This document shows positions 29,164-49,071 of a stretch of 64,000 nt of DNA, piece after piece. The translations under genes were made by a program, and so were the position numbers. This stretch comes from an uncultured Clostridia bacterium. GTDB taxonomy: Bacteria > Bacillota > Clostridia > Christensenellales > CAG-314. Location: positions 1,732-65,731 of the forward strand of contig CANQGO010000006.1 in assembly GCA_947623225.1 (NCBI GenBank), in the 5' to 3' direction. Positions within the stretch are counted from its first letter, which is position 1. Each line of letters begins with the position of its first letter. Below the pieces are notes generated by a model. It made no database searches and had not been told where the DNA came from. It worked only from the letters and a program-made list of their open reading frames with translations.

Positions 29164-29370
29164 GTGAAACGATATTACGTTCTTGCCGTATTGGCGGCCA
29201 TTCTGATCGCCGTAGCGTGCATCGTACATGTTACGATTGCTTACATTAGCATTTTGAATTCAGCCTCAAGTGCGCCGGCTTCGGTGGCATTTTTGATTGC
29301 AATTCCGTATGCTTTGGCGGATTTGGCCGCGATCGTAGTCGCAATTATCTTAAAAAAGAGGGTAAAATGA
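29164..29370 (+). CDS. small two-TM membrane protein
   Basis: 68 aa with a GTG start 7 nt after AGGAGG and two hydrophobic helices. Its stop overlaps the next start (ATGA). Confidence 0.5.
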   Translation: MKRYYVLAVLAAILIAVACIVHVTIAYISILNSASSAPASVAFLIAIPYALADLAAIVVAIILKKRVK

Positions 29371-29993
29371 TTCAATTTGGGCAAAAACTTGCACAGTTGA
29401 GAGAAGGCAAGTGCCTTTCTCAAGAGCAACTTGCAGAGCAGTTGGGAGTTTCCCGCCAAACGATCTCCAATTGGGAAAACGACAAGGTAAGTCCCGACGT
29501 GAATATGGCTGCACAAATCTGCCGTTTTTTCGGTGTGGACATGAACGCCTTGTTTTTGGCCGACGACGGATCGACCACGGTAAACTCGGACACTCAAGGC
29601 AAGACGCAAGCGACTGCACAAAAAACGAACAGCATAGAAGTCAATCTGGGTATCTGGAAAACGTCTTTAGTGATAAGTATTGTTATGTGCATCGTGTTTG
29701 CCGCCTTGACGATTTTGGCAGCATGCCTACTTGCCGACAATGCACAAGGCGAAATAAACAGCACATTGGAACTAGGCAAGGACGCCTCCGGCTCGGCGTT
29801 TTCATCGACACTTTCCGTAAAATCCATTTTGACCATTGCAGGGCTTTGCTTTGCAGGTGCCGCAACGGTTTTCTCGGCGGTGATGCTGATCATATCTGCC
29901 ATAATGTATCAACGCTGCAAAAAGGCAATAGAGTGCCTCTCCGAGCCTAAGCAAAAGCGTGATGCAAGCGACAAAGTCGAAGAGACAGAATAA
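29367..29993 (+). CDS. membrane-anchored XRE-family HTH transcriptional regulator
   Basis: 208 aa with an N-terminal Cro/C1 HTH (LSQEQLAEQLGVSRQTISNWENDKVSP) and two predicted C-terminal TM helices. Confidence 0.75.
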   Translation: MIQFGQKLAQLREGKCLSQEQLAEQLGVSRQTISNWENDKVSPDVNMAAQICRFFGVDMNALFLADDGSTTVNSDTQGKTQATAQKTNSIEVNLGIWKTSLVISIVMCIVFAALTILAACLLADNAQGEINSTLELGKDASGSAFSSTLSVKSILTIAGLCFAGAATVFSAVMLIISAIMYQRCKKAIECLSEPKQKRDASDKVEETE

Positions 29994-30329: not shown

Positions 30330-30375
30330 GCACATATCTATTCGCAAAAGTTGCCTTTTGCGAATAGATATGTGC
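30330..30375. repeat. perfect 21-bp-arm inverted repeat (4-nt loop)
   Basis: GCACATATCTATTCGCAAAAG-ttgc-CTTTTGCGAATAGATATGTGC. It is flanked by the smaller palindromes GGCAAAATTTTGCC (30301-30314) and GTGTG..CACAC (30378-30394). Confidence 0.9.
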
Positions 30376-30529: not shown

Positions 30530-30558
30530 TTGATTAAAAGGTATATGTATGTTATAAT
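30530..30558 (+). promoter_or_regulatory. sigma-A type promoter (TTGATT-17-TATAAT) upstream of the TIR gene
   Basis: Consensus -10 and near-consensus -35 with a 17-nt spacer. This implies a leader of about 140 nt before ATG 30706. Confidence 0.55.
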
Positions 30559-30705
30559 TGTAATAGTTATGCCAAGGCGGACGCACGACTGCTCTGCGGC
30601 TATCACAAACTGCTACATTAAACTATGCGTAAACTAGCATAGAAAACGGATCATCGCGGTAAATGCACCGCCATTCTTGCAAATCGCAAAGGAGGTTATT
30701 GACAA

Positions 30706-31611
30706 ATGATCGCATATGAAGGGAAAGAGCCTTATGTTTTTGCCTCTTATTCTCACAAGGATACCGACCGGGTACTCAGGCTCATCACTCTGCTCAAACA
30801 AAAAATGTGCAGGATCTGGTATGACGACGGACTGACGCCGGGCGAATCCTGGAACGATGATATTGCACGGCATCTGGTCGGTTGCTCGCAATTTCTTGTA
30901 TTCATATCGCCCCACTCTGTCGTGTCGAAATATGTACTCTCGGAGATCAACTACGCGCTTGCCAAAAACAAAAATATTCTGCCCGTCATACTGAGCAAAA
31001 CGACGCTGCCGCCGGGACTGGAGATGATGCTGAGTACCATCCAATTCCTCGACGTCTCCGATATCGATGACGTGAATAAGTCCGTGGGTATGATAGCCGA
31101 GTCCTTGAACGCTTCCGTTTTTTCCGTTGCAAAGGCACCGTTCTTGGAGGATCTGGGGTATGCCTTCTACATGCACACTCGAGACGTTGACAGAAAGAAT
31201 ACCGGCAAATGCTGCGCCGCTACAGTTTTTTGCAGGGATGAGCACGAAAATGAGGTGGAACTATTTGATCTGCAGAGGCTCGGCGCATATGACGCTTCGT
31301 ACAACCTGTCCTCTGTAGAGCCTGTCAAAGACTACTTCTACACCGGGAAGATACAAGGGATTTACCAGATAAATATCGTCGGGCGATTCTCGCTCGAGTA
31401 TCCGCTGTACGGACCGGATGTGGACGTCTTGCTTATTTTCATATTGAGAATACCACGTCACGGAGCACCCACTCTGAAACTCGTAGACTATCAATATGTA
31501 AATGCGTTTGCATCCCTTGACTATGAGGATGAGGAAGATCCGGATACCCTCGGCGAAAAAGGTTGGAGCACGCAGATAAAGGAATATTTAGAAAAAATAT
31601 TGTGCAAATAG
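30706..31611 (+). CDS. TIR-domain protein with uncharacterised C-terminal domain
   Basis: 301 aa. Residues 1 to about 130 carry TIR hallmarks: YVFASYSHKD, RIWYDD, and FLVFISPHSVVSKYVLSEINYA with Glu80 at the catalytic-glutamate position. I recognise no motif in the C-terminal ~165 aa. Confidence 0.8.
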   Translation: MIAYEGKEPYVFASYSHKDTDRVLRLITLLKQKMCRIWYDDGLTPGESWNDDIARHLVGCSQFLVFISPHSVVSKYVLSEINYALAKNKNILPVILSKTTLPPGLEMMLSTIQFLDVSDIDDVNKSVGMIAESLNASVFSVAKAPFLEDLGYAFYMHTRDVDRKNTGKCCAATVFCRDEHENEVELFDLQRLGAYDASYNLSSVEPVKDYFYTGKIQGIYQINIVGRFSLEYPLYGPDVDVLLIFILRIPRHGAPTLKLVDYQYVNAFASLDYEDEEDPDTLGEKGWSTQIKEYLEKILCK

Positions 31612-31661
31612 CGGGCTTGGTTTGACTTTTGCCTATATAATAGCAATTGCACGGAGGAAAT

Positions 31662-32363
31662 ATGTCTATCGAAACGCTATGCGACGAAATCGATTCGAAG
31701 TATGAACAGCTAAAGGCGATACTGAACACTGCAGATCTGAGTAAAATAATAGAAACCGCTCTGGAAATGCATGCTTTGGTCCATCCTTCCGCGATTTCAG
31801 GCATAGCAGATAAAACAATTGCCGATCACGTACTGGAGTACATGATGCAAGGCAATCAAAACGAACTTGTTCCGAGAAAAAACTTCGACGCCTATGCACT
31901 ACGACGGTACCGCTATCGTGCCTCTTGTTTGGCAGTTTTGGCACACATACCGTATAGAGGATCTTGTCACCAATATCTTGTTGGGAAACAGGCCGCAGAT
32001 ATTTAACTCTGAATGGCAGCGTAGGATAGGCTCACCTATTGCAGATACCGGCAATGCTTTGGAATATAATGAAGCGATAGCGTTCGGCAAAGCCATCAAC
32101 ACAGATGAACTGCTCAACTATATGATAGCCGTAGGCAAAAATACGAGAGAGATCATCCGCTCGCCGACCATGGAGAAGATACGATCATGGCACCTGAAGA
32201 ATGGGTCATGCGTATCCTCGAAGAAGGCGGCGTCACTACGGATTTTCGCTCGGTATGGCTGTTGGTGTTTGGGGGAAGGCTGACCGGAGGCGGAATGATC
32301 TTGACACCACTTACATGCCATCACACGATGCACCTTTTTGCTTGCTTGGACAAAATACGCTGA
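31662..32363 (+). pseudogene. DinB-like (DinB_2/DUF664-type) gene disrupted by two compensating frameshifts
   Basis: Three colinear ORF pieces: frame 0 (31662-32006), frame +1 (31867-32283) and frame 0 again (32187-32363). The middle piece reads PLVWQFWHTYRIEDLVTNILLG and the last CHHTMHLFACLDKIR, which are DinB-like His-containing helices. The first shift coincides with the A6 run at 31877-31882. Confidence 0.45.
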
Positions 32364-32373
32364 ATGAATACGA

Positions 32374-32925
32374 TTGAAAATGTTTACAGGTGCTTTTAAC
32401 AAGAAAAACAACTTCTATGACAGAAAATGGGTGCATGACAGATGGGGCCTGACATACACCATCGATCAAACATTATTTGAAGCAATTGCCGACAAAATCA
32501 GGCAAATTTTAGGCGAAAAAACGAAATATACGGTACAGGACGCATACGCTTATTTTCGTATTGCTTACCATGCGTATCAGATAGACTACCGCCAATTTTA
32601 CAACTATTGCAGTAGCGAGAAGGTAAAATATGCGGATTTGACACAGCCGACCATAAGCAACGACAACGATATCGAACTGCTGGCGGAAGGATCCGGTCGG
32701 TTTTTCTCATATCTCGTGGACGAACATTTTACAAACGAAAAGGCTCTCACGCTGGTGATAGATAACAGTACCGTTCGCGAGTTGTTTTCAACTGCCTCGC
32801 GTGACAATATCATATTGGTCATAGGCTCTTTTGACGAAGCGACCATCAATTCAATGAAAGTTTTGCTCAGTCCTAATATTCCAGAGATCGAATACGCGCT
32901 GGAATTTTTCAGACTACACTGCTGA
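32374..32925 (+). CDS. hypothetical protein
   Basis: 183-aa ORF starting 10 nt after the DinB-like stop. It has no obvious SD and no recognised motif. It is AT-rich, like the neighbouring genes. Confidence 0.5.
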   Translation: MKMFTGAFNKKNNFYDRKWVHDRWGLTYTIDQTLFEAIADKIRQILGEKTKYTVQDAYAYFRIAYHAYQIDYRQFYNYCSSEKVKYADLTQPTISNDNDIELLAEGSGRFFSYLVDEHFTNEKALTLVIDNSTVRELFSTASRDNIILVIGSFDEATINSMKVLLSPNIPEIEYALEFFRLHC

Positions 32926-33014
32926 CCGCGTCCACTGTTGCGGCGTTTCCATTGTTGTTTTTAACTATCCCATTGCACTACTCTTCCGTATATGCAAAAA
33001 TTGTTCAATAATTA

Positions 33015-33055
33015 TTCGTAAAATATTTGCTTTACGAATAGATATTCGTTATAAT
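33015..33055 (+). promoter_or_regulatory. promoter (TTGCTT-17-TATAAT) with overlapping operator-like inverted repeats
   Basis: The -35 is at 33027-33032 and the -10 at 33050-33055. IR1 is TTCGTAAA-n8-TTTACGAA (33015-33038). IR2 is CGAATAGATATTCG (33035-33048), inside the spacer. Confidence 0.5.
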
Positions 33056-33124: not shown

Positions 33125-34189
33125 ATGAGTCAGACATATTTCAACGGCAGAGACGCCGAAAATCTCGAGAAATTGGATAGAATACTGGAGGAGGATCTGC
33201 CGGAATTTTGCAGAGAATACTTCGTCGGCATATCTTCCAATACAACTCCGCTGACGCGGCTGAACTATGCATACGACATACGTACATTTTTCAAGTACCT
33301 TGTAGCCAAAATAGCGCGATTTCGCGGGAAAAGTACCAAGGACATAACGCCGGAGGATATAGAATCCCTATCGCCGTTTGAGATAGAGGCATATCTCAGC
33401 TACGTAGAGATATATCGCAAAGACGGCAATATCGTAAAAAACGGAGAGCGCGGCAAGAGCAGAAAACTTGCCGCCATCCGCTCCATGGTGAAATATTTCG
33501 AAAAGAAACAGCTGATACGCTACAATCCTACAGCCTCCGTCGATACGCCCAAACTGCACGAGAAGGAGATCATAAGGTTGGATGGCGACGAGATAGAGAC
33601 CATGCTGGACGTGGTAGATACGGGAGACGGACTGACGGCGCGTCAGCAAAAGTACCAGGAAAACACCCGCATACGGGATCTGGCGATGGTCAGTTTGCTA
33701 CTCGGTACCGGTATCCGTGTAAGCGAATTGGTTGGTATCGACATCTCCGACGTGAACTTCGACGATCTGAGTTTTGTAGTGACGCGCAAGGGCGGGGCGC
33801 GCGTTATATTGTACTTTTCCGAAGAGGTCGCCGGGTATCTGCGCGACTACTACGACATGAGAACAGCGGACGAGTCGGTGAAAAACGAGCCTGCACTATT
33901 CCTGTCATTGCAAAAAAGGCGTATCACCACCCGTGCGGTGGAGAATATTGTCAAAAAATACAGCCTCGTCGCTACGCCGCTGAAGCATATAACGCCGCAC
34001 AAGTTGCGCTCTACTTTCGGCACGCAACTCTACCGCAATACAGGCGATATATACGTCGTAGCGGACGTATTGGGGCACAAGGATGTCAACACGACCAAGC
34101 GGCATTACGCCGCGATCACAGACGATATACGGCGCAACGCGTCGGTAAAGGTAAGTCTGCGCAAACCTCCAAGAGACGAAGATGATTGA
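33125..34189 (+). CDS. tyrosine recombinase (XerC/XerD-like, phage-integrase family)
   Basis: 354 aa with an N-terminal SAM-like domain and catalytic-domain residues (R in LLLGTGIRVSEL, HKLRSTF, GHKDVNTTKRHY). Its stop overlaps the hflX start by 8 nt. Confidence 0.85.
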   Translation: MSQTYFNGRDAENLEKLDRILEEDLPEFCREYFVGISSNTTPLTRLNYAYDIRTFFKYLVAKIARFRGKSTKDITPEDIESLSPFEIEAYLSYVEIYRKDGNIVKNGERGKSRKLAAIRSMVKYFEKKQLIRYNPTASVDTPKLHEKEIIRLDGDEIETMLDVVDTGDGLTARQQKYQENTRIRDLAMVSLLLGTGIRVSELVGIDISDVNFDDLSFVVTRKGGARVILYFSEEVAGYLRDYYDMRTADESVKNEPALFLSLQKRRITTRAVENIVKKYSLVATPLKHITPHKLRSTFGTQLYRNTGDIYVVADVLGHKDVNTTKRHYAAITDDIRRNASVKVSLRKPPRDEDD

Positions 34190-35505: not shown

Positions 35506-36111
35506 ATGAAAAAAGGTGACATTCGCTTAGAAGAAGTATACAACTATATAAAACAGTTCATAGACGACAACGGTTTTCCGCCTTCGGTGCGAGAGATAGG
35601 CGAGCAATTTTCCATGAAGTCCACGTCCACCGTGCACTACTATCTTGAGAAATTGCGCAACAAAGGGCTTATATCTCAGAACACAAGCAGAAGGCGCGCA
35701 TTCACCGTAACGAACAAATCGAGAGGACGCGCAAACTTCGTGCCCATGATAGGCACCGTCAGCGCAGGCAAGGGAATGCTGGCGACGGAGAATATCGAAG
35801 GCGAATTTCCTCTGCCGCAAGATATGTTCAACGGGAGCGATCTGTTTATCCTGTGCGTAGAGGGCGACAGCATGACGGAGGTCGGTATATCCGACGGAGA
35901 CTATGTGATAGTCCATTCGCAATCGAGTGCCGAGATAGGCGAGATCGTCGTTGCGCTGTGGCAAGATAAAGCAACGGTCAAAAGGCTACGCGCCACTTCG
36001 CCCAATCTCGTGCTTCACCCGGAAAACAGCAGCATGGAAGATATAGTCATAGAACCGAGCGACGAACCGTCCATTTTGGGCAAGGTAGTCGGCTGCATAA
36101 AGAAATTCTGA
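35506..36111 (+). CDS. lexA: LexA repressor
   Basis: 201 aa with a winged-HTH N-terminus (GFPPSVREIG) and the S24 autopeptidase Ser/Lys dyad (VEGDSM ... VKRL). Confidence 0.95.
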   Translation: MKKGDIRLEEVYNYIKQFIDDNGFPPSVREIGEQFSMKSTSTVHYYLEKLRNKGLISQNTSRRRAFTVTNKSRGRANFVPMIGTVSAGKGMLATENIEGEFPLPQDMFNGSDLFILCVEGDSMTEVGISDGDYVIVHSQSSAEIGEIVVALWQDKATVKRLRATSPNLVLHPENSSMEDIVIEPSDEPSILGKVVGCIKKF

Positions 36112-36124
36112 TCAGATTTGATAC

Positions 36125-36152
36125 GGCGGTGCCATAAGGTGCCGCCTTTTTT
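36125..36152 (+). terminator. rho-independent terminator after lexA (possibly bidirectional)
   Basis: Stem GGCGGTGCC / GGTGCCGCC followed by TTTTTT. It lies between the convergent lexA and 36161-36913 genes. Confidence 0.65.
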
Positions 36153-36160
36153 ATACAATT

Positions 36161-36913
36161 CTAACTCATCAGACTTTTCAAAATACCGTATCGCTCCAAT
36201 TCGCGCGCACATTCGCCCGCATTCCGAACGTATCTGTCCATAAAGCAGGCATGCGCACGATCATGCAGCGGGTGAGAAAAGTGTGCAAAACCGTGAGCGA
36301 TCACATACCTGCGCAGATGCTCGGGCAACTGCGCTATACGAAAATCAAAACAAAGTACACGCTTGCTCGCCAGAGAACAACTGACCCAGAAATCGATATT
36401 GTCTTTATATTCTATCCTGGTGGGACACAGCGACGCCTCGCTGCCGAAATTTGCCACCTCTTCGGAAATACGAGTATTGTCTATGTGCTTGAGAAAACCC
36501 TTGACGGCTTTGGCTATGGACTCCCGCGTTTCGTAATATTTCTCTGCGATATACAGCGTCTCCCCGTCGAGATAGGTCTTGCGTTTCGTCGGGCGAATAT
36601 CCACCGTAACGCCGAGTATCAGCGTCTTTTTGCCTGCAAACAACTCACGGATCATCCCGCCGTCAGCGCATTCGTCGGTATGTTCCTTTTGTGCAACTGA
36701 TTCTACAGCAGATGGTTGATCGCGCGTCTCCCTGTGCGCGCTTATCCATTCGCTGTGACGTTTGATGATCTGTCGGAGTTTTCTGTCGGACAGGAACATA
36801 TTGGCAACCACTTTGAGCACGCCGTCCTCTACACGCATCTGTACTATTCGCTTGACTGTACGAGTGACTTCCACTTTCATACGTAAAAAGATACACCGGA
36901 CATGCCCGATCAT
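36161..36913 (-). CDS. YgjP/DUF45-like metallopeptidase-fold protein with degenerate HExxH (HGFAH)
   Basis: 250-aa ORF; an internal start at MKVEVT is possible. The C-terminal region VIAHGFAHFSHPLHDRAH aligns by eye with the DUF45 HELxHxxxxNH motif, but Gly replaces Glu. Confidence 0.6.
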   Translation of the reverse strand: MIGHVRCIFLRMKVEVTRTVKRIVQMRVEDGVLKVVANMFLSDRKLRQIIKRHSEWISAHRETRDQPSAVESVAQKEHTDECADGGMIRELFAGKKTLILGVTVDIRPTKRKTYLDGETLYIAEKYYETRESIAKAVKGFLKHIDNTRISEEVANFGSEASLCPTRIEYKDNIDFWVSCSLASKRVLCFDFRIAQLPEHLRRYVIAHGFAHFSHPLHDRAHACFMDRYVRNAGECARELERYGILKSLMS

Positions 36914-37008
36914 ATTTATATGTTTTGTATAATACGGCGGAATATTGTCAAAAGAGCCGAATTCTCAACAAGTTTGCCAATCTATGTCAGTAATAGTAGT
37001 TTAAGGTA

Positions 37009-37037
37009 TTGACTTTTTTATGCATATATTCTACAAT
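37009..37037 (+). promoter_or_regulatory. sigma-A type promoter (TTGACT-17-TACAAT)
   Basis: Strong hexamers about 20 nt upstream of the AAGGAGG SD of the PadR-like gene. Confidence 0.6.
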
Positions 37038-37056
37038 ATTCGCAAGGAGGTTGAAC

Positions 37057-38421
37057 ATGAGCGGTGATTTTACCTTTTTGAAGGGAAATATCGAAACAAT
37101 TATTTTGTGCTCACTGTACAACGGCAACAAGTACGGCTACGAAATCGCAAAAGAGATAAAAGAGCGTACAAACAATCGCTATGAGATCAAGCAACCCACG
37201 CTCTACTCCTATCTGAAGAGATTGGAAGAGGACGATCTGATCGTATCGTATTGGGGAGAGAACTCCAACGGCGGTCGTCGACGCTACTACGCGTTGACCA
37301 AGACGGGACGTACCAATTGTGAGCAATTTATCTCCGAATGGCAATACCAACGCTCCGTATTGAGCGAGTTGGTGGACGGCACCGCTACCGGTGTGGAGAT
37401 ATCGCAAGAGGACGCCACTCCGCTATTCGGACGGCGCAGCCCTCGCAAGAACAAGCGCAACGAGTTCCAGGAGGAAATGAATCAGCAGGACGAGATCGCG
37501 CGTCGCTTGCGTGAGCTGACGGGAGCAGATGACACCACTGCCGCGACCGAGGAAGCGGACGAACAGCCCGTCGAAGAAACTGTCGAGGAGCCATCAGAAC
37601 CGGTCGAGCAGCCTGTGACAGCAGAACCCGAGCCTGCACCGGAATCCGTATCGGAGCCGGAGCCGCCCGTCTTGGCGGAAGAACCTGCGCCTGTGGCGGA
37701 AGAACCTGTCGAAGATCCGCTGGCACGCTTCGAAGTCAATCAAGATAATGCAGAGGACTTCATGCAGGACTTCGACGAGAGAGCGCGCGAAGTTACGGAT
37801 CGTCAGCCTGCCGAAGGTGAGAACTATCAGCACATTCTGAATAATATCATCGGCGATCAACTCGATGACGTGGACAGAACGACCGTAGACGCACCGGCTG
37901 CAACTTATTACGAGGACAGGCATGCCGCATTGGAGGACGTCGCAGACAATCTCGCCAAAGAAGGAATACGCCTGCGTATATACAACCATGCAACCGCTAC
38001 ATACAAATCGAAGATGCTCATACCTCAGGCGAAGGTATTATGCGAGACTTCCTGGCTCACGTACATAGTTGCGATCATCTACTTCGGAGTATTTGCGCTG
38101 TGCTCCATCTCCGTTGGCAATTGGCAACCCTTCATCATTGCTCTTGCGATACTGATGCTGGTGCCCATCGGCTTCACCATATACGCCATCGTAGATCCTA
38201 CTCGCAAAAACAAGCCTGCATTTAATTTCAAGATCGCAATGATCATCGCAGGTGCCGTGTGCGTGATAATAATTCTTGCCTCGATAGGCATAAGCGCACT
38301 GAGCAATGTGGAGTTCAGCAATTTCGAGCAGACTTCTCGCAGCATAATGGTACCGCTTGGCGTAGCGATCCTCGTGCCCACATTCATCGGCATATACGAA
38401 GTACTATACAAGCAATATTGA
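37057..38421 (+). CDS. PadR-family regulator fused to an acidic Pro/Glu-rich linker and a 4-TM C-terminal domain
   Basis: ATG 37057 follows an AAGGAGG SD. The N-terminus is a PadR winged HTH (GNIETIILCSL..GYEIAKEI..QPTLYSYLKRLE). An EP-rich stretch of about 100 aa follows, then four hydrophobic helices. Confidence 0.75.
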   Translation: MSGDFTFLKGNIETIILCSLYNGNKYGYEIAKEIKERTNNRYEIKQPTLYSYLKRLEEDDLIVSYWGENSNGGRRRYYALTKTGRTNCEQFISEWQYQRSVLSELVDGTATGVEISQEDATPLFGRRSPRKNKRNEFQEEMNQQDEIARRLRELTGADDTTAATEEADEQPVEETVEEPSEPVEQPVTAEPEPAPESVSEPEPPVLAEEPAPVAEEPVEDPLARFEVNQDNAEDFMQDFDERAREVTDRQPAEGENYQHILNNIIGDQLDDVDRTTVDAPAATYYEDRHAALEDVADNLAKEGIRLRIYNHATATYKSKMLIPQAKVLCETSWLTYIVAIIYFGVFALCSISVGNWQPFIIALAILMLVPIGFTIYAIVDPTRKNKPAFNFKIAMIIAGAVCVIIILASIGISALSNVEFSNFEQTSRSIMVPLGVAILVPTFIGIYEVLYKQY

Positions 38422-38440
38422 TCGAAAAACTTACAATACA

Positions 38441-38478
38441 AAACAGCATTTGCATCGGTTTCGCGAATGCTGTTTTAT
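38441..38478 (+). terminator. rho-independent terminator after the PadR-like gene
   Basis: Stem AACAGCATT / AATGCTGTT followed by TTATTG. Confidence 0.55.
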
Positions 38479-38502
38479 TGTTGCGAGTTTGAAGTCAAAT
38501 AT

Positions 38503-38561
38503 AAAAGCGTCGGAATATTGCCGACGCTCTACTCTTTGCATGGCAGGGGAGACGCGATTCG
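38503..38561 (-). repeat. 59-nt duplicate of the tRNA-Trp 3' end plus its terminator
   Basis: By eye it is identical to 38689-38747: AAAAGCGTCGGAATATTGCCGACGCTCTACTCTTTGCATGGCAGGGGAGACGCGATTCG. Confidence 0.9.
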
Positions 38562-38685
38562 TAAGGAGTGCGCAAGTCGGTTGTCGTGAATGAAACTTAT
38601 TGCACGACGGAATAGGGATCGCTGCGCTTTGCGCCGATCCCGTCACACGCCAACCGAGGTTGCGGGTTTGAATCGCGTCATGCAT

Positions 38686-38714
38686 TAAAAAAGCGTCGGA
38701 ATATTGCCGACGCT
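38686..38714 (-). terminator. rho-independent terminator downstream of tRNA-Trp
   Basis: On the minus strand, stem AGCGTCGG / CCGACGCT followed by a T-run (the A-run at 38686-38691 on plus). Confidence 0.7.
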
Positions 38715-38726
38715 CTACTCTTTGCA

Positions 38727-38801
38727 TGGCAGGGGAGACGCGATTCGAACACGCAACCGGCGGTTTTGGAGACCGCTGCTCTACCATTGAGCCACTCCCC
38801 T
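38727..38801 (-). tRNA. trnW: tRNA-Trp (anticodon CCA), CCA 3' end encoded
   Basis: The reverse complement reads AGGGGAGTGGCTCAATGGTAGAGCAGCGGTCTCCAAAACCGCCGGTTGCGTGTTCGAATCGCGTCTCCCCTGCCA. It folds as a cloverleaf with a 7-bp acceptor stem, anticodon loop CUCCAAA and T-loop TTCGAAT. Confidence 0.9.
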
Positions 38802-38902
38802 AAAAAATTATGTCGCAAAACATTTGCAACTTTGGGTACTTTAATATTATAATGTAAAGGAAATTTTATGTCAATTGATACGGCAAAAATAGTTTGGAAA
38901 TT

Positions 38903-39367
38903 ATGAAGAAAGTTACAATTTACACGGATGGAGCCTGCTCGGGCAATCCCGGTATCGGCGGATGGGCGGCGGTACTCCTCTACAACAGTGCCAAAAAAGA
39001 AATAAGCGGCTACGACAAAAGCACCACTAACAACAGAATGGAACTATTCGCTGTCATACAGGGGCTGAGATGCCTGAATCAACGCTGCGAGGTGGAGATA
39101 TGCACGGATTCGCAATATATCGCCGACGCCTTCAATAAGGGCTGGATCGCTGCTTGGCAAACCGCCGGCTGGAAGACCGCGTCAAAGAGCGAAGTGAAAA
39201 ATCAAGACCTATGGAAGGCACTCATATACGAAGTGAACAAGCACAATGTCCAATTCGTCAAGGTCAAGGGACATGCGGACGTGGAATGGAATGAACGCTG
39301 CGACGAATTGGCGCGCAGTGAAATAGAACGTTATCGTAAATTAACAGACGGCGCGGGTGAAAATTAG
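38903..39367 (+). CDS. rnhA: ribonuclease HI
   Basis: MKKVTIYTDGACSGNPGIGGW start, with a conserved DEDD-type RNase H fold (NNRMEL, TDSQY, GHADVEWNERCDELA). The ORF track starts at TTG 38894. Confidence 0.9.
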   Translation: MKKVTIYTDGACSGNPGIGGWAAVLLYNSAKKEISGYDKSTTNNRMELFAVIQGLRCLNQRCEVEICTDSQYIADAFNKGWIAAWQTAGWKTASKSEVKNQDLWKALIYEVNKHNVQFVKVKGHADVEWNERCDELARSEIERYRKLTDGAGEN

Positions 39368-39379
39368 CGGAAATATTAA

Positions 39380-39409
39380 AAGGGAGCAGGATATGAGACC
39401 TGCTCCCTT
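39380..39409. terminator. bidirectional terminator hairpin between rnhA and rny
   Basis: AAGGGAGCAGG-atatgaga-CCTGCTCCCTT, lying between convergent genes. Confidence 0.6.
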
Positions 39410-39431
39410 TGATCTTACTCGATAACCGTCA

Positions 39432-41042
39432 TCACTTGGCGTAGTCCACGCTACGCGTCTCGCGGATGACATTCACTTTGATCTGTCCGGGATATTCCAA
39501 CTCGCTCTCTATGCGGCGAGCGATATCGTTGGCAAGCAATACGGTGGATTCGTCATTGACCTCTTCAGGCTTGACGATGATACGGATCTCGCGTCCTGCC
39601 TGTACAGCATAGGATTTCTGTACGCCCTTGAAGGAATTGGCTATCTCCTCCAGTTTTTCCAGACGCTTGACGTAGTTTTCCAACGACTCTCTTCTTGCTC
39701 CGGGACGTGCACCGCTGACCGCGTCTGCAGCCGCCACTATGACCGCCTCCACCGTCATCGGCTCGACATCGCCGTGATGGGAAGCAATACAGTTGACAAC
39801 TTCCTTGCTCTCCTTGTACTTCTTGGCAAGGTCGGCACCGATCTGCATGTGCGTACCCTCTATCTCCTGGTCCACTGCCTTGCCGATATCGTGCAGCAAT
39901 GCGCCTCTCTTGGCAAGAGCCACGTCCAGTCCAAGCTCGGACGCCATGATCCCGGCTATATAGCTTACTTCTATAGAGTGACGAAGTACGTTCTGACCGT
40001 AACTGGTGCGGAACTTCAATCTACCCAGCAACTTGATCAATTCCGGATGCAGACCGAATACGCCCGTGTCGAAGGACGCCGCTTCGCCTTCGTCCTTGAT
40101 GGTGATCTCCATGTCGCGCTTGACCTTCTCCACCATCTCCTCGATACGTGCCGGGTGGATACGTCCGTCGGAGATCAGCTTCTCTATCGTGATACGCGCT
40201 ATCTGTCTGCGTACCGGGTCGAATCCCGAAAGAATGACCACCTCGGGAGTGTCATCGATGATCAACTCTACGCCTGTGGCGTTCTCGATGGCACGAATGT
40301 TTCTGCCCTCGCGGCCAATGAGCCGTCCCTTCATCTCGTCATTGGGAAGGGGTACCGTAGTGACAGTCATCTCGCTGACTTGGTCGCTTGCGCAACGCTG
40401 TATGGCGGTAGCGATGATCTCACGCGCTTTTTGCTCGCCGTTTTGCTTGGCTTCCGCCTCTATCTTGCGTACAAGTCCCGCAGCATCTCTGCGAGCATCC
40501 GAGACCATACCGTCGATAAGCAACTGCTTGGCTTCGTCCTTGGTAAGTCCTGCAACGCGCTCCAACTCTTGCTGGATCTTCTCTTCGGACTTGTCCAACT
40601 CCTGCGCACGCTTGTTCAACTCGCCCTGCTGGGAGATAAGTTGCTTTTGCTGAACGTCTATCTGGTCGAGTTTCTTGAGAAGCATCTCTTCTTTCTTGTC
40701 CAATGCTTCCTCTTTCTGACTCATACGGTTCTCTTGCTTGGCAAGTTCGCCGCTGCGTTCCCTTATCTGACGTTCTGCTTCGTTTTTCTGTCTCTGAGTT
40801 TCTTCTCTTGCCTCTCTGATGGCATCATTTTTCAACGATTTGGCTTCTTCGCGAGCAAAATCCAGTATCGAATCTGCCTGCTCCTGAGTGGAGCCGATCT
40901 TACGATTTCTATATCTTCTATATATGCAGATCCCTGCGCCCACACCTGCTCCTGCGAACAAGATCGCAACTACGGGCAACAAGATCCAGATCCAAGAAGG
41001 AATAGTACTTTCGGCAAGGAAGAATGTTAGCAATGATTGCAT
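39432..41042 (-). CDS. rny: ribonuclease Y
   Basis: N-terminal TM, coiled coil, KH domain and HD domain (HDIGK, SHHGD). I prefer the MQSLLTFF start at 41042, which has a GGAGGA SD; the ORF track extends to 41087. Confidence 0.95.
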
Positions 41043-44770: not shown

Positions 44771-46092
44771 AATATTGCCTCTCCGCTAAGGTCGTACTCC
44801 TGCGCACCGTCTATGCGCACGTCGCAAAAACTGCCTACCGACAATGCCTCTCTCGAAGAAATGTACACATTGCCGTCTATCTCGGGCGTCATGAAGTACG
44901 TCCTGCCTCTATAGAAATGACATTCGCCGTCGCTGCCTTCGTATTCGTCCACGATACAGCGATATACTCTGCCTATATCTTCACGATTGAGTTGTGCGGC
45001 GACCTGCCGCTGCGTCTTGTACAACTGTCGGACATAGCGTTTTTTTGTACGCTCCGGCACCTGTGCATCGAAACGCGCCGCGGCAGTGCCCTCTTCTCGG
45101 GAATACGGGAAAAATCCCACATTGCGCAGACGGTATTCCCGCAGAAATTCGTCCAGTTCCTTCAATGTATCCTCTGTCTCTCCCGGGAACCCGCATATAA
45201 AGGTGGAACGCACCGCTATCTGCCTGTCGGCGAGTTTTTTCAAAAGCGAGCGAACGGCTGCACCGTCGGAACGCCTGTTCATCTTCTTTAATATGCCGTC
45301 GTCTATGTGCTGCAGCGGGATATCCACGTAATTGACCACTTTATCGTTGGAAGCGATCTCGTCTATAAGCGCGTCGTCCATCAACTCGGGATAGCAATAC
45401 AGCAATCTTATCCACTCTATCCCCTGTACCGCCGACAATTCATGCACCAATTGCGCCAATCGCGGTTCACCGTACAGGTCCACACCATAACGCGTGGTAT
45501 CCTGCGCCACAAGTATCAATTCCCTGACGCCCTTGTCTGCCAACTCGCGTGCTTGTCCGAGTATCTGTTCTCTCGGTACCGAGCGGTATCTGCCGCGTAT
45601 ATAAGGAATAAGGCAATATGTACAGAAATTGTCACAGCCGTCGGCTATTTTCAAGTAAGCGACATGCGGCTGAGTTGTCAGGATACGCGAACCGAACGTC
45701 AGTCCGTCGGAGCAGGTATTGTACAACTTGCGCGAGCCGCCCAGCGTATCGGAAACGATACGGCATATATCGTCGTATTCGTACGTGCCCACTATGGCGT
45801 CCGCCTCGGTCAGGTCCTTGTACAATTCCTGCCCGAACTTCTGCCCGAGACAGCCCGTCACTATGATCTTTTTGCAGTGCTCGGACTTGTAGTGCGCCAT
45901 CTCCAGCACCGTGTCTATCGCTTCCTTGCGCGCCGATTCCAGAAAGGCACATGTGTTCACTATGATCACGTCGGCAAGGCTCGGGTCGGACACTATCTCG
46001 TATCCGCCGCGAACGAGGTTTGCCAACATGACTTCGGTATCCACACGGTTTTTGTCACAACCGAGCGACACCACTCCTACCTTGACGCTCAT
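44767..46092 (-). CDS. rimO: ribosomal protein S12 methylthiotransferase RimO
   Basis: 441 aa with a UPF0004 domain (LGCDKN), radical-SAM CDNFCTYC and a TRAM domain. Confidence 0.9.
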   Translation of the reverse strand: MSVKVGVVSLGCDKNRVDTEVMLANLVRGGYEIVSDPSLADVIIVNTCAFLESARKEAIDTVLEMAHYKSEHCKKIIVTGCLGQKFGQELYKDLTEADAIVGTYEYDDICRIVSDTLGGSRKLYNTCSDGLTFGSRILTTQPHVAYLKIADGCDNFCTYCLIPYIRGRYRSVPREQILGQARELADKGVRELILVAQDTTRYGVDLYGEPRLAQLVHELSAVQGIEWIRLLYCYPELMDDALIDEIASNDKVVNYVDIPLQHIDDGILKKMNRRSDGAAVRSLLKKLADRQIAVRSTFICGFPGETEDTLKELDEFLREYRLRNVGFFPYSREEGTAAARFDAQVPERTKKRYVRQLYKTQRQVAAQLNREDIGRVYRCIVDEYEGSDGECHFYRGRTYFMTPEIDGNVYISSREALSVGSFCDVRIDGAQEYDLSGEAIL

Positions 46093-48926
46093 ATCTCATC
46101 ATCCAACTCGGGGAAGATATTGTCCAGTTCTTCCAACGTGATTTGTACACGCAACGGTTTTGAGTTTGGCTCGCTGGGAGACAAAGTCTCTACATAGCCC
46201 ATTCTCTGCAATGTATCCATGATACGTCCGGCACGGTTGAAGCCGATGCCGAGACTGCGTTGAATGGACGCGATGGACGCTCTGCCGCCCTGCTTTTCCA
46301 ACCAGAAACGCAGTGCTTTCTTGCAATACGGGTCTATGTCTTTGCCTTCGTCCTTGCCCTCTTCCTGAGCCTTGGCTTCTTCTTGCTGCTTCTGCGAGAC
46401 GAATATCTCTTCGGATATGTTCTCGTCGTAGTACAACTCGTTCATCTCGCGTGTGTAGTCCACCATTCCGCGAATCTCGTCATTGGATACGTACGCGCCC
46501 TGCACGCGCAGCAACTCCGCCGAGCCGGGAGACATGAACAGCATATCGCCCTTGCCCAGCAACTTTTCCGCGCCGCCGCCGTTGATGATGGTCACGCTGT
46601 CGGCAGGCGAGGAGACCTTGAGTGCCATACGGCAAGGAAGGTTTGCCTTGATCGTACCGGTGATGGTCTTTACGTCGGGACGCTGAGTAGCCAAGACGAT
46701 ATGGATACCTGCCGCTCTGGATTTCTGTGCCAGACGTTGCAGTTTGCTCTCGAATGCCTGCTTGCTCGCCGCCATCAGGTCTGCCAACTCGTCCACGATG
46801 AATACGAGATAAGGCATCTTCTGCGCCAGACGCGGATTGATACGGGCGTTGTACTCGCCGATATTGCCTACGCCGTTTTTGCGGAACAGTTGATAGCGCG
46901 CTTCCATCTCATTGATGAGGTAGTCCATGCCCGCGAGCGCGTCCGCGGGCTGCGTGATGGTCTCGCTGGTGAGCATGTGCGGAATACCGTTGTAGCGTGA
47001 CAGTTCGACAAACTTTGGGTCCACCATCACGAAACGAAGATATTCCGGTCCGTATCTGTACATAAGGCTGACGATGAGGCAGTTCAGAGCCACGCTCTTG
47101 CCCGATCCGGTCGCGCCTGCGATCAATAAGTGCGGCATCTCTGCCAGGTCGGAGACGATGACCTTGCCCGTTATATCCTGACCTATGGCAAATACGAGTT
47201 TGCCCTTTGCCTTCTTGAAGGCGTCGGACTCTATTATACTTCTGAGTACTACGGGACGCTTCACTTTGTTGGCGACCTCTATACCCACCTGATTGGTACC
47301 TTGCACGGGTGCCTCGATACGTATATCGTCCTGTGCCTCCACGCACGCCTTGATATCGTCGGAATAACTTGCGAACATATTCATACGCGTCTTTTGGGAA
47401 AGCACGTTGAACATATACCTCGTCACCGACGGTCCCACTATGGTATCGGCAAGTTCCACCTTGATACCGAATACCGCCAGCTTATTGGTGATAGCCTCCG
47501 CCGCACGTGCACGCGAATCCGCCTCGGTATCCTCCACTATGGTGATATCGTTCAGCAGGTCCACAACGGGCGGAACGTACTTGGGATATTTGTGTATCTT
47601 TGCCTGACTTTCTTCCAACTCTTTGCGCGGTACCAGGTCGATCTTGGTCTGCACGGCGGTACCGGCAGACGTCTCGATGACGGTCTCGCCCTCCACAGGC
47701 ACCAACTCATCACCTCTCGAATCGGATTCCTCCGCCCGCTGCGGTTCTTCGGTGTGCTCCTCAGACTCCCCAACGTTGTCGGACGTATCGTCTGTGTAAC
47801 TGTCCTCGACAAAGGACATATCGTCCTCTTCTTCCGCTATATCCGCCATATCCACGTCGTCGGAGTCCGCATCGTCGGATCGCGGCAACGGATCAACGTC
47901 GACGGTATCCACAACGATCGGAGACACGTCAGCCATGTCCTGCGGCTCGTCCGCAGGTGTATCTGAGGTTATCTTCCAGTCCGAAGCCTCCTCATGCTGT
48001 TCCGTAGTCGAGCCATAGGAGCCATCCGGGACAATGAATCCCTCCTCACGCGGCTGTTCCTGTCGAGGCTCTTGCTGCACGGGACGGAAGAAACTGTTGC
48101 CGCCGCTCGGTCTGTCCGTCGGCTGAGAAGGCTCGGCGTCGCTGCCGAACAGAATGTCGGACGCGCTGCTTGTTGTGGTCGGCTTCGGCGAGGGATCGTC
48201 CAGTGTAGACTGAGGTGCCACGTCGTACACGTCTCTTGTAACTCTGTCCGGGAAAGGACGATCGCCGAACAGCACCTCACGCGCTCTTTCGCGGTCGTCG
48301 TCTACCGGAGATACGGTGACGGGCGATACGGATATGGTATCGGGACTCGGTTCTATGTCGCTACGGACGGGTGCCGACTGCAAGGTCAACTTGCCCGTGA
48401 AGTAGGAATAGAAGAAATCACCGATGAAGTACACGGATACCCCCAGCAGTGCGACGATGACGATCATCGCGCCCCATACGGACAGTCCGTGTGTGAGTGC
48501 CCAGCATATGCAACCGAAAAATACACCGCCGAAGGTGGGAACGCCCATGACATTGTCATAATAGTTGTACACAAGTTGCACATAGCCCGTGCCCGTATCG
48601 TTGCGGAATTCATTGCTCATCAGGTACGTCGTGGTCAGCGTGTGCACGAAAAGCACGATCGCCACAAAAGTCAGTACAAAGAATACGGCATACCTGACGG
48701 GCACCTTCAGACTCTTGCCTGCCAGCACGAAGGAGCATATGACTATGACCGCCGCCATCATGCCGTAAAAAGACATTCCGAATGTGCCGAGGAAGAAGTT
48801 ACCGAAGTGGCGGAATCCGCCCTGCGCATATCTTCCGCTGAATGCGAAGATCACAAGCAAAGTAGCCACACATATGCCCACTATGCTTGCAATCATTTTC
48901 CCTTTTGAAACAGTACGTGACTTCAA
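46089..48926 (-). CDS. ftsK: DNA translocase FtsK/SpoIIIE
   Basis: N-terminal TM helices, a long acidic low-complexity linker, a motor domain with GATGSGKS and a gamma (winged-helix) C-terminus. I prefer TTG 48926, 7 nt after GGAGG; the ORF track extends to 48956. Confidence 0.9.
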   Translation of the reverse strand: MKSRTVSKGKMIASIVGICVATLLVIFAFSGRYAQGGFRHFGNFFLGTFGMSFYGMMAAVIVICSFVLAGKSLKVPVRYAVFFVLTFVAIVLFVHTLTTTYLMSNEFRNDTGTGYVQLVYNYYDNVMGVPTFGGVFFGCICWALTHGLSVWGAMIVIVALLGVSVYFIGDFFYSYFTGKLTLQSAPVRSDIEPSPDTISVSPVTVSPVDDDRERAREVLFGDRPFPDRVTRDVYDVAPQSTLDDPSPKPTTTSSASDILFGSDAEPSQPTDRPSGGNSFFRPVQQEPRQEQPREEGFIVPDGSYGSTTEQHEEASDWKITSDTPADEPQDMADVSPIVVDTVDVDPLPRSDDADSDDVDMADIAEEEDDMSFVEDSYTDDTSDNVGESEEHTEEPQRAEESDSRGDELVPVEGETVIETSAGTAVQTKIDLVPRKELEESQAKIHKYPKYVPPVVDLLNDITIVEDTEADSRARAAEAITNKLAVFGIKVELADTIVGPSVTRYMFNVLSQKTRMNMFASYSDDIKACVEAQDDIRIEAPVQGTNQVGIEVANKVKRPVVLRSIIESDAFKKAKGKLVFAIGQDITGKVIVSDLAEMPHLLIAGATGSGKSVALNCLIVSLMYRYGPEYLRFVMVDPKFVELSRYNGIPHMLTSETITQPADALAGMDYLINEMEARYQLFRKNGVGNIGEYNARINPRLAQKMPYLVFIVDELADLMAASKQAFESKLQRLAQKSRAAGIHIVLATQRPDVKTITGTIKANLPCRMALKVSSPADSVTIINGGGAEKLLGKGDMLFMSPGSAELLRVQGAYVSNDEIRGMVDYTREMNELYYDENISEEIFVSQKQQEEAKAQEEGKDEGKDIDPYCKKALRFWLEKQGGRASIASIQRSLGIGFNRAGRIMDTLQRMGYVETLSPSEPNSKPLRVQITLEELDNIFPELDDEI

Positions 48927-49071
48927 ACCGTCACCTCCTTGCACTATCTCGTCCACGAGGACACAGATATTACACTATATAAGAATTATTATACTATAAT
49001 GTCGGTAAATAATCAACAGTTGAAAATCAAAGTATAGACTATTTTTTTTACTATTCTGCGTGCCGCTCGGC

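Follow-up and report, generated by a model that had tools for sequence, protein, structure and literature searches.

What can a TIR-domain protein do when none of the genes that define the known TIR systems accompanies it? This question is raised by a gene for a protein of 301 amino acids, located at positions 30706-31611 (forward strand, stop codon included) in a 64,000-nucleotide stretch of DNA of an uncultured Clostridia bacterium (Christensenellales; contig CANQGO010000006.1, positions 1,732 to 65,731), which is referred to as the window in the following. The protein combines an N-terminal TIR domain with a C-terminal beta-rich domain. The reading that we prefer, and to which we assign a probability of about one half, is that it represents a self-contained abortive-infection protein, in which a single polypeptide unites a TIR NAD+ glycohydrolase (NADase) with the C-terminal domain as its sensor, and that its gene is the cargo of a cassette bordered by Xer-type sites.

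The TIR domain and the C-terminal beta-rich domain

Residues 1-135 (30706-31110, forward strand, as for all positions within the gene) form the TIR domain according to Pfam, Foldseek and an AlphaFold2 (AF2) model. Pfam TIR_2 (PF13676) matched residues 11-119 with an E-value of 8.8e-21 and 75.1 bits compared to a cut-off of 28, and ThsB_TIR scored 29 bits, which is also above its cut-off of 21. The full-length AF2 model reached a predicted local distance difference test score (pLDDT) of 86.3 and a predicted template modelling score (pTM) of 0.70, and its TIR half shows a flavodoxin-like beta-alpha pattern. With the whole model, Foldseek returned the TIR-APAZ protein of SPARTA, SARM1, AbTir, Toll-like receptors and plant TIRs with E-values of 1e-7 to 1e-4. 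Since the long alignments to TIR-APAZ superimpose with a root-mean-square deviation of 23-27 Å, only the TIR half fits. Altogether, both the score and the fold (Foldseek probability of 1.00 to many TIR structures) place the protein in the TIR superfamily.

A preliminary description of this DNA, made from the sequence alone, had quoted three TIR signature motifs and had placed Glu80 at the position of the catalytic glutamate. All three motifs were present, and the codon of Glu80 was verified at 30943-30945. Glu80 was conserved without exception among the 30 close and 18 distant members compared, down to 26% identity. A profile search against PDB sequences aligned it with the glutamate of the W-x-x-x-E motif in AbTir (WTNYELDG), BtTir (WTEYELNG), TIR-1/SARM1 (WVHKELKCA) and Cat1, which we take to be the catalytic residue of these proteins. 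The conserved glutamate of the alpha-C helix, by which enzymatic TIRs are recognised, is thus represented by Glu80, and from its sequence the protein would be expected to cleave NAD+. A putative BB-loop, G42-LTPGESWN-D51 (30829-30858), was assigned based on its conservation and its flexibility in the model. In the close alignment of 30 sequences, G42, L43, G46, S48 and N50 were invariant, and residues 43-47, which belong to this presumed loop, are the sole stretch of the full-length model with a pLDDT below 50. In the wide alignment, which extends to members with 26% identity, no variation occurred at S14, Y15, H17, D19, D40, G46, W49, S74 and E80 of the TIR domain.

The matches to PADLOC and NCBIfam (ThsB models, SAVED_TIR, PDC-S66, Thoeris type III ThcB4 and retron-TIR) were weak, confined to the TIR core and all far below the cut-offs of the families. 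No described system was matched over the full length, which agrees with the preliminary description, according to which the protein does not belong to a described TIR system.

The remaining part of the protein, residues 136-301 (31111-31608), had been described as roughly 165 beta-rich residues without recognisable relatives, and the same holds true after modelling and searching. Modelled alone, the C-terminal domain reached a pLDDT of 84.6 and a pTM of 0.81, and the model comprises eight long antiparallel strands followed by two helices. This confident model had no significant neighbour in the PDB by Foldseek (best E-value 0.19, TM-score of at most 0.37) and none in BFVD (best E-value 0.06). 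The weak top rows for the domain, namely BPI/SPLUNC1, StARkin, LptE, VirB8-like and NTF2-like structures, had E-values above 0.19 and TM-scores of at most 0.37 and were discounted. On the level of sequence, the domain showed no match in Pfam (25 members scanned), no relative in NCBIfam or PADLOC and no match in PHROGs, and its profile found no match among PDB sequences.

Among 1.84 billion cluster representatives, a profile search with the last 166 residues, run without a word filter, recovered 19 clusters only. Most of them contain proteins of about 300 residues in which the domain begins near residue 136. All complete proteins with this domain that were scanned carried an N-terminal TIR_2 domain, while two short entries without a TIR match look truncated. 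One member of 457 residues (P0083) carries an additional C-terminal YunG domain (PF24585, E-value 4.6e-29) after the beta domain.

The domain is characterised by the motifs PF(146), LEYPLxGPD(230-238), LRIP(247-250) and DYQY(261-264). In the close alignment, F146, Y195, D209, LEYPLxGPD, LR(I)P and D261-x-x-Y264 were invariant, and in the wide alignment F146 and D238. Compared to the TIR domain, the C-terminal domain diverges faster, with a mean pairwise identity of 0.27 vs. 0.40 in the wide family and of 0.50 vs. 0.55 in the close family. It is proposed that this domain acts as the sensor or regulatory domain of the TIR protein.

Distribution and gene neighbourhoods of the family

Screening 5.8 billion proteins yielded 44 relatives over the full length, each about 300 residues long, with identities of 37-69%. 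More distant matches had nothing but the TIR domain in common with them, in combination with FGE-sulfatase, LRR or other domains. The members originate from assemblies and metagenome-assembled genomes (MAGs) of gut or rumen Clostridia, Christensenellaceae, Oscillospiraceae and Coriobacteriaceae. Among 185,579 species genomes (one genome per species), seven loci were detected, belonging to Christensenellaceae, Clostridia, Eubacteriales, Oscillospiraceae and one Coriobacteriaceae MAG.

Including the window, 12 distinct contexts of homologues were obtained. Nine of these adjoin restriction-modification, AbiH, HicAB toxin-antitoxin, integrase or further TIR genes, and the family is therefore not confined to housekeeping surroundings. 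In L001-L004, the gene is in tandem with another TIR_2 gene, accompanied by XRE, SHOCT and BspA-LRR genes. In L005-L007, an integrase gene and the TIR gene are followed by genes for an RNA ligase, an HD/AAA_33 protein (HD-kinase), two VWA proteins and a protein kinase, while L011 shows a helix-turn-helix (HTH) gene, two DNA methylase genes and Trypsin_2. In L012 (2690-9298), the family gene lies between the genes for a TIR-HD protein of 999 residues and a TIR membrane protein of 423 residues, and L021 (2279-6921) comprises a TIR gene, a TIR-STAND gene (NPHP3_N), the family gene, an integrase gene and HicAB. The same slot beside LigD/Ku genes is occupied in L014 (5997-12609) and L025 (2847-10902), with different restriction systems on the opposite side, a type I HsdM in the former and an MmeI-type enzyme plus AbiH in the latter, which suggests that this slot is a defence hotspot. 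In L019 (1207-5722), the order is Uma2 nuclease, the family gene, BspA-LRR and TPR-TIR; here, the family member is split into two open reading frames (ORFs; 1207-1425 and 1490-2212) and probably represents a decaying copy. The remaining contexts comprise housekeeping genes for tRNA modification (L008-L010), small and uninformative genes (L013), and a DnaB_2 protein with proteins lacking an assignment (L023).

An all-versus-all BLASTP comparison of the ORFs of 10 non-redundant loci revealed no shared neighbour except for TIR paralogues. This absence of a conserved neighbour fits a one-gene system. The members of the family thus behave as independent single genes within accessory, defence-rich or mobile DNA, and not as part of a fixed operon. 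The small ORFs downstream of the gene were rejected as partners, since there is no relationship between those of the window, of L005 and of L011.

Arrays of two to three adjacent TIR genes were observed at L021, L012, L001 (7034-8909) and L019. The genes of these arrays share only the TIR domain, whereas their other parts (STAND NTPase, HD, membrane, TPR or an unrecognised beta domain) are all different. A distant version of the C-terminal domain in the neighbouring paralogues was considered and rejected, since the BLASTP similarity covers the TIR domain only and an hhalign comparison with the C-terminal half of the L003 paralogue gave a probability of 0.6%.

Comparison with known TIR systems and proposed function

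The preliminary description had found no known TIR partner close to the gene, and this statement can be extended to the entire 64-kb window, in which no ThsA, SIR2, SLOG, Macro, cyclase, STING, Argonaute or reverse transcriptase gene and no caspase-like or other Thoeris-type effector gene was found. A scan of 41 further ORFs of the window revealed no defence gene either. The PADLOC matches to SspH, mad8 and HerA are cross-hits of FtsK/SpoIIIE, those to Cas10 and Cas3 result from the HD domain of RNase Y, and those to SspA and DndA most likely from a class-V aminotransferase (cysteine desulfurase type, IscS).

Several systems resemble the protein in that their TIR NADase is N-terminal and precedes a sensor or adaptor domain, namely TIR-APAZ of SPARTA, TIR-SAVED of CBASS, Cat1 (CARF-TIR) and TIR-STING, and these are the top structure and sequence matches for the TIR half. 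In contrast, no APAZ, SAVED, CARF or STING structure matched the C-terminal domain alone (best Foldseek E-value 0.19). SPARTA was not indicated, since neither an APAZ match nor an Argonaute gene was found and the PADLOC match to Aga_TIR (E-value 0.016) covers the TIR domain only. The same holds true for the TIR proteins of CBASS, Pycsar and type III CRISPR systems: the SAVED_TIR match of 26 bits is limited to residues 11-87, the only Cas10 match of the window is the one to RNase Y, and cyclase and CRISPR genes are missing.

For Thoeris, the comparison leads to an alternative explanation, in which the protein would be a ThsB-like signal generator whose TIR domain senses infection and makes a messenger of the type of a cyclic ADP-ribose (cADPR) isomer or His-ADPR, for an effector encoded elsewhere in the genome or for a neighbouring TIR, STAND or HD protein. 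ThsB proteins are likewise small TIR proteins with variable additional parts, the ThsB_TIR score lies above its cut-off, several PADLOC ThsB models match weakly, and homologues are found in tandem with a TIR-STAND gene (L021), a TIR-HD gene (L012) or a second TIR gene (L001). However, the adjacent ThsA effector that defines Thoeris is missing from the window as well as from the neighbourhoods of the homologues, and SIR2, SLOG, Macro, caspase-like or other effectors are equally absent from the window. No effector-type gene is conserved beside the homologues, the TIR paralogues vary from locus to locus, and the PADLOC ThsB matches, with at most 22.6 bits, are confined to the generic TIR core. 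Compared to its cut-off of 220 bits, the NCBIfam model of Thoeris type III ThcB4 reached only 15.5 bits. On this basis, the signal-generator explanation appears rather improbable.

The closest characterised analogue is SpbK (YddK) of the element ICEBs1 of Bacillus subtilis, an abortive-infection protein with TIR NADase activity that is encoded by a single gene. Docking of its non-TIR domain on the SPbeta portal drives TIR assembly and NAD+ depletion (PMC12847820). Both proteins consist of one polypeptide of about 270-300 residues with a TIR NADase and a small non-TIR domain, need no partner gene and are carried by mobile elements, if the protein described here is active on its own and its cassette mobile. 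By analogy, the proposed logic would also be shared, in that the non-TIR domain would bind a multimeric phage protein and cluster the TIR domains (PMC12847820). Differences concern the sensor, which is N-terminal and helical in SpbK, whereas the proposed one is C-terminal and beta-rich here, and the sequence, since no SpbK chain was among the PDB sequence matches at E-values of up to 0.01. One-protein TIR defence relying on the catalytic residues of the TIR domain has further been validated for TIR-II, -V, -VI and -IX of E. coli (PMC11350192). These proteins belong to another phylum and either carry TPR or ATPase domains or consist of a short TIR alone; the beta domain has not been reported for any of them, and it is by these descriptions that they are set apart. 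Membership of the SpbK family or of the E. coli one-protein families is thus not claimed.

Transferred to the protein studied here, these analogies would suggest an anti-phage role with the following course. The N-terminal TIR domain would act as an NAD+ glycohydrolase with Glu80 as catalytic residue and the conserved BB-loop (residues 42-51), and, as in other TIR enzymes, it would be active only when TIR domains meet in head-to-tail assemblies. In the uninfected cell, the C-terminal domain would keep the protein dispersed or auto-inhibited. Binding of a multimeric phage component or another infection cue by this domain would then cluster the TIR domains, which would deplete NAD+, possibly with formation of ADP-ribose (ADPR) or cADPR isomers, and would halt the infected cell.

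The same enzymatic activity could also serve a purpose outside immunity. The protein might be an NAD-metabolising enzyme of commensals, whose ADPR or cADPR-variant products act on the community or the host, a role that has been proposed for TIR proteins of gut microbes, or it might be an inactive scaffold. All members of the family stem from gut or rumen bacteria, some of the contexts are of the housekeeping type, and the release of v-cADPR-x is documented for TIR NADases of gut bacteria (PMC9092222). However, the protein contains neither a signal peptide nor a secretion-associated domain. The very patchy distribution (seven loci in the species genomes mentioned above) and the variable position are typical of accessory defence genes, and the gene often adjoins restriction-modification, Abi, toxin-antitoxin and integrase genes. 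The invariant catalytic glutamate speaks against the scaffold option. A role outside immunity is therefore considered distinctly improbable.

The Xer-site cassette at the dif locus

The gene of the window is enclosed by two Xer-type sites. At the left border of the cassette lies site A (ATCTATTCGCAAAA-GTTGCC-TTTTGCGAATAGAT, 30336-30369), a perfect 14-6-14 palindrome, and at the right border, 82 nt before a xer gene, site B (AATTATTCGTAAAA-TATTTG-CTTTACGAATAGAT, 33010-33043), whose arms deviate at three positions from a perfect palindrome. The 28-nt core pattern of the sites occurred twice in the window, compared to 0.02 occurrences expected by chance. Between the sites lie 2.64 kb without a recombinase gene. 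This bracket and the adjoining single-recombinase xer gene at the replication terminus had not been noticed in the preliminary description.

The xer gene (33125-34189, forward strand) encodes a XerS/XerH-like single tyrosine recombinase of 354 residues (Phage_integrase, E-value 6.6e-34). Its best NCBIfam match was XerS (NF003462) with 180.8 bits, which is below the cut-off of 267; it is thus no XerS equivalog, and the likeness to XerS and XerH consists in the length and the gene-linked site only. A site linked to the gene and a protein of about 355 residues are the hallmarks of the single-recombinase XerS and XerH systems (PMC5357621). Contrary to difSL, difH and the classical 28-bp dif, the site found here is a 14-6-14 palindrome. 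We presume that the recombinase resolves chromosome dimers by acting on sites A and B.

For comparison, 80 metagenomic xer loci (more than 544 hits in all) with recombinases 49-61% identical over the full length were analysed. Most of them showed the same site family 5' of the gene (AwCTATTCGyAAAA-N6-TTTTrCGAATAGwT), with AWCTATTCGYAAAA-N6-TTTTRCGAATAGWT as its search motif. The arms co-vary across the loci, as in TTCGCAAAA/TTTTGCGAA, TGCGTAAAA/TTTTACGCA and TTTCGTAAAA/TTTTACGAAA, and the arms of site A are identical to those of the sites 5' of the orthologous xer genes in L028 and L074. In L032 and L074, the synteny of the window is retained as (mutS-)mutL-miaA-aminotransferase-[one site]-xer(-hflX-lexA), with no genes between the aminotransferase gene, the single site and xer. 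None of the 80 loci contained a homologue of the TIR gene or of the other accessory genes of the window (the split ORFs and the 183-residue ORF of the cassette, and the genes for an XRE membrane protein and a small membrane protein beside it). The integrase encoded beside the relative P0003 was considered as an orthologue of the recombinase of the window, which it is not.

That foreign DNA enters this site in related genomes can be seen from L086 and L102, in which the canonical site is shifted by 5-6 kb compared to the otherwise matching loci L083 and L075. The inserts encode Zot (E-value 9e-21) and a Rep of the filamentous-phage type (G2P, 7e-15, or Viral_Rep), which identifies them as inovirus-like prophages. 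Such prophages at the same dif-like site were located in L086 (377-5650), L102 (163-6100) and L035 (94-6395), with L083, L075 and L036 as insert-free counterparts. The cargo of L035 has the canonical site on one side and, on the other side, a hybrid site, which matches the canonical one in its central region and right arm, and a comparable hybrid site was found in L086. This combination of a hybrid and a canonical site is the classical behaviour of Xer-exploiting elements.

The position of the locus within the chromosome can be derived from the window as well. The GC skew is positive up to about 36 kb and negative over the rest of the 64-kb window, and the gene orientation changes from mostly forward to mostly reverse at 36-39 kb (about 36000-39500). 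Taken together, these changes are characteristic of a replication terminus, here at a distance of a few kb from the xer/dif locus. Positions 46089-48956 are occupied by an FtsK/SpoIIIE gene. In L027, L029, L030, L040, L048, L051 and L057, the mutS-mutL-miaA(-aminotransferase) block is inverted and located on the other side of xer, which is consistent with inversions centred on the terminus or dif. The GC content amounts to 0.52-0.57 at 42000-64000 compared to 0.45-0.50 in the first 40 kb, which would reflect either a difference in composition between the two replichore arms or a contig put together from different regions.

Two flanking Xer sites, the lack of an integrase of its own and the location at the terminus are the features of integrative mobile elements exploiting Xer (IMEX) and of dif modules, as known from CTXphi, VGJphi, the gonococcal island and the pdif modules of Acinetobacter, and in related genomes this site is exploited by filamentous prophages. 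Unlike in those elements, the cargo here is a defence-type gene and not a phage or resistance gene. We conclude that a 2.64-kb module at the chromosomal dif locus carries the TIR gene as its cargo, and that the gene was probably acquired by Xer-mediated integration of an IMEX-like or dif-module-like element. The sites and the recombinase probably represent an undescribed single-recombinase Xer/dif system of gut Clostridia.

Apart from the TIR gene, the cassette contains a DinB-family-like gene in two overlapping frames (ORFs of 119 and 138 residues, 31647-32283, forward strand; DinB-type mycothiol transferase of NCBIfam, E-value 1.6e-5 for the second ORF), which is probably a pseudogene or an assembly frameshift, and an ORF of 183 residues (32374-32925, forward strand) without a family match and without a homologue beside any relative of the TIR gene or of xer. 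The TIR gene is therefore the only intact recognisable function of a cassette that lacks replication and transfer genes. This composition would also be in line with an addiction toxin, i.e. a basally toxic NADase that is restrained in cis by the C-terminal domain or by a labile factor and thereby keeps the cassette in the genome. The dif modules of Acinetobacter often carry toxin-antitoxin pairs, and regulators of the XRE type are encoded near the gene in the window and in L001. However, no antitoxin-like neighbour is conserved, the XRE gene of the window lies outside the cassette, and flanking Xer sites are limited to the copy of the window: the 26 loci retrieved around homologues contained none, and inverted-repeat scans of L014, L015, L021 and L025 revealed no Xer-type site. 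Addiction is accordingly seen as a very improbable explanation. Since there is no conserved partner, since the distribution is patchy and accessory, and since no Xer sites surround the other members, all three rival explanations are less supported than the self-contained defence protein.

The XRE-family HTH protein just mentioned has a C-terminal membrane region (29367-29993, forward strand; Pfam HTH_3, 6e-16). Together with a small membrane protein, its gene forms a second stretch of accessory DNA (29164-29993) between the aminotransferase gene and site A. Both genes are located outside the cassette and missing from the syntenic empty loci. The XRE gene has no homologue in the 80 xer loci and is not conserved beside the TIR homologues, so that a functional link to the TIR gene is not supported. 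On both sides, the accessory DNA is followed by housekeeping genes, upstream mutS, mutL, miaA and the aminotransferase gene, downstream hflX and lexA.

The preliminary description had seen the gene in an AT-richer accessory islet with its own consensus promoter, and both statements hold true in part. The accessory nature follows from the empty loci L032 and L074, and is shown much better by this synteny than by the AT content, since the AT-richness is modest: the GC content of the islet is 0.40-0.45 compared to 0.47-0.53 in the flanks, with one block of 0.50 within the TIR gene. As for the promoter, a consensus scan yielded a site with 10 of 12 matching positions (TTGATT-17 nt-TATAAT with a TG-extended -10, 30530-30558, forward strand), but such matches are no more common in the region than expected (11 compared to 8.5 +/- 2.6 in shuffled sequences). 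The ATG start codon is preceded by a strong Shine-Dalgarno sequence (AAGGAGG, 30689-30695, forward strand) at a distance of 10 nt. In the 700-nt gap 5' of the gene, Rfam gave no regulatory RNA except for two sub-threshold miRNA matches, which are merely the palindrome of site A.

A number of observations weigh against the self-contained sensor-effector protein in a mobile cassette. The invariant residues F146 and D238, the near-invariant P233 and the YPLxGPD loop of the C-terminal domain could equally belong to a small-molecule pocket or to a purely structural core. Three of the 12 contexts (L008, L013 and L023) offer housekeeping genes or nothing informative. Several homologues stand in tandem with other TIR genes, and the family gene of L021 and of L001 begins just 1-4 nt after the end of such a gene, so that TIR paralogues may co-operate. 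No family member was found among 2.9 million viral contigs (IMG/VR), and the family is too small for statistics on enrichment in defence islands. As for the cassette, sites A and B do not share their central region (GTTGCC compared to TATTTG), while the arms of each site are self-consistent. A fresh integration is ruled out by this pattern; together with the frameshifted DinB-like gene, it makes the cassette look old or immobilised. No circular or empty form of the TIR cassette itself was seen, and its mobility is thus putative.

Beyond the preferred reading, a more far-reaching version can be formulated, which we regard as unlikely, though less so than any of the three rivals. According to this version, the C-terminal domain would have a previously unseen fold (compared with PDB and BFVD) and would sense a phage protein directly to drive TIR clustering. 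The gene would form a minimal defence cassette that is moved in and out of dif by the single Xer recombinase of the host, and dif would be a hotspot of defence genes and prophages, served by an undescribed XerS/XerH-like system with 14-6-14 sites.

Among the forms of TIR immunity, single-polypeptide TIR NADases are the simplest, and few of their sensor domains are understood. Since one-protein TIR defence as such is already established by SpbK and the E. coli proteins, the novelty of the family lies in the sensor domain and not in the principle. With 300 residues, the family provides a compact case, in which a proposed sensor domain that is confidently predicted and has no known relatives occurs on TIR proteins only, and its trigger, once found, would add a new mode of infection detection for TIR enzymes. 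The hosts are gut and rumen Clostridia that are hard to culture and have been poorly sampled for defence systems. In these bacteria, the location of a defence-type gene between Xer sites, together with the filamentous prophages at the same position in relatives, points to dif as an integration hotspot and also to a single-recombinase Xer/dif system that is probably undescribed.

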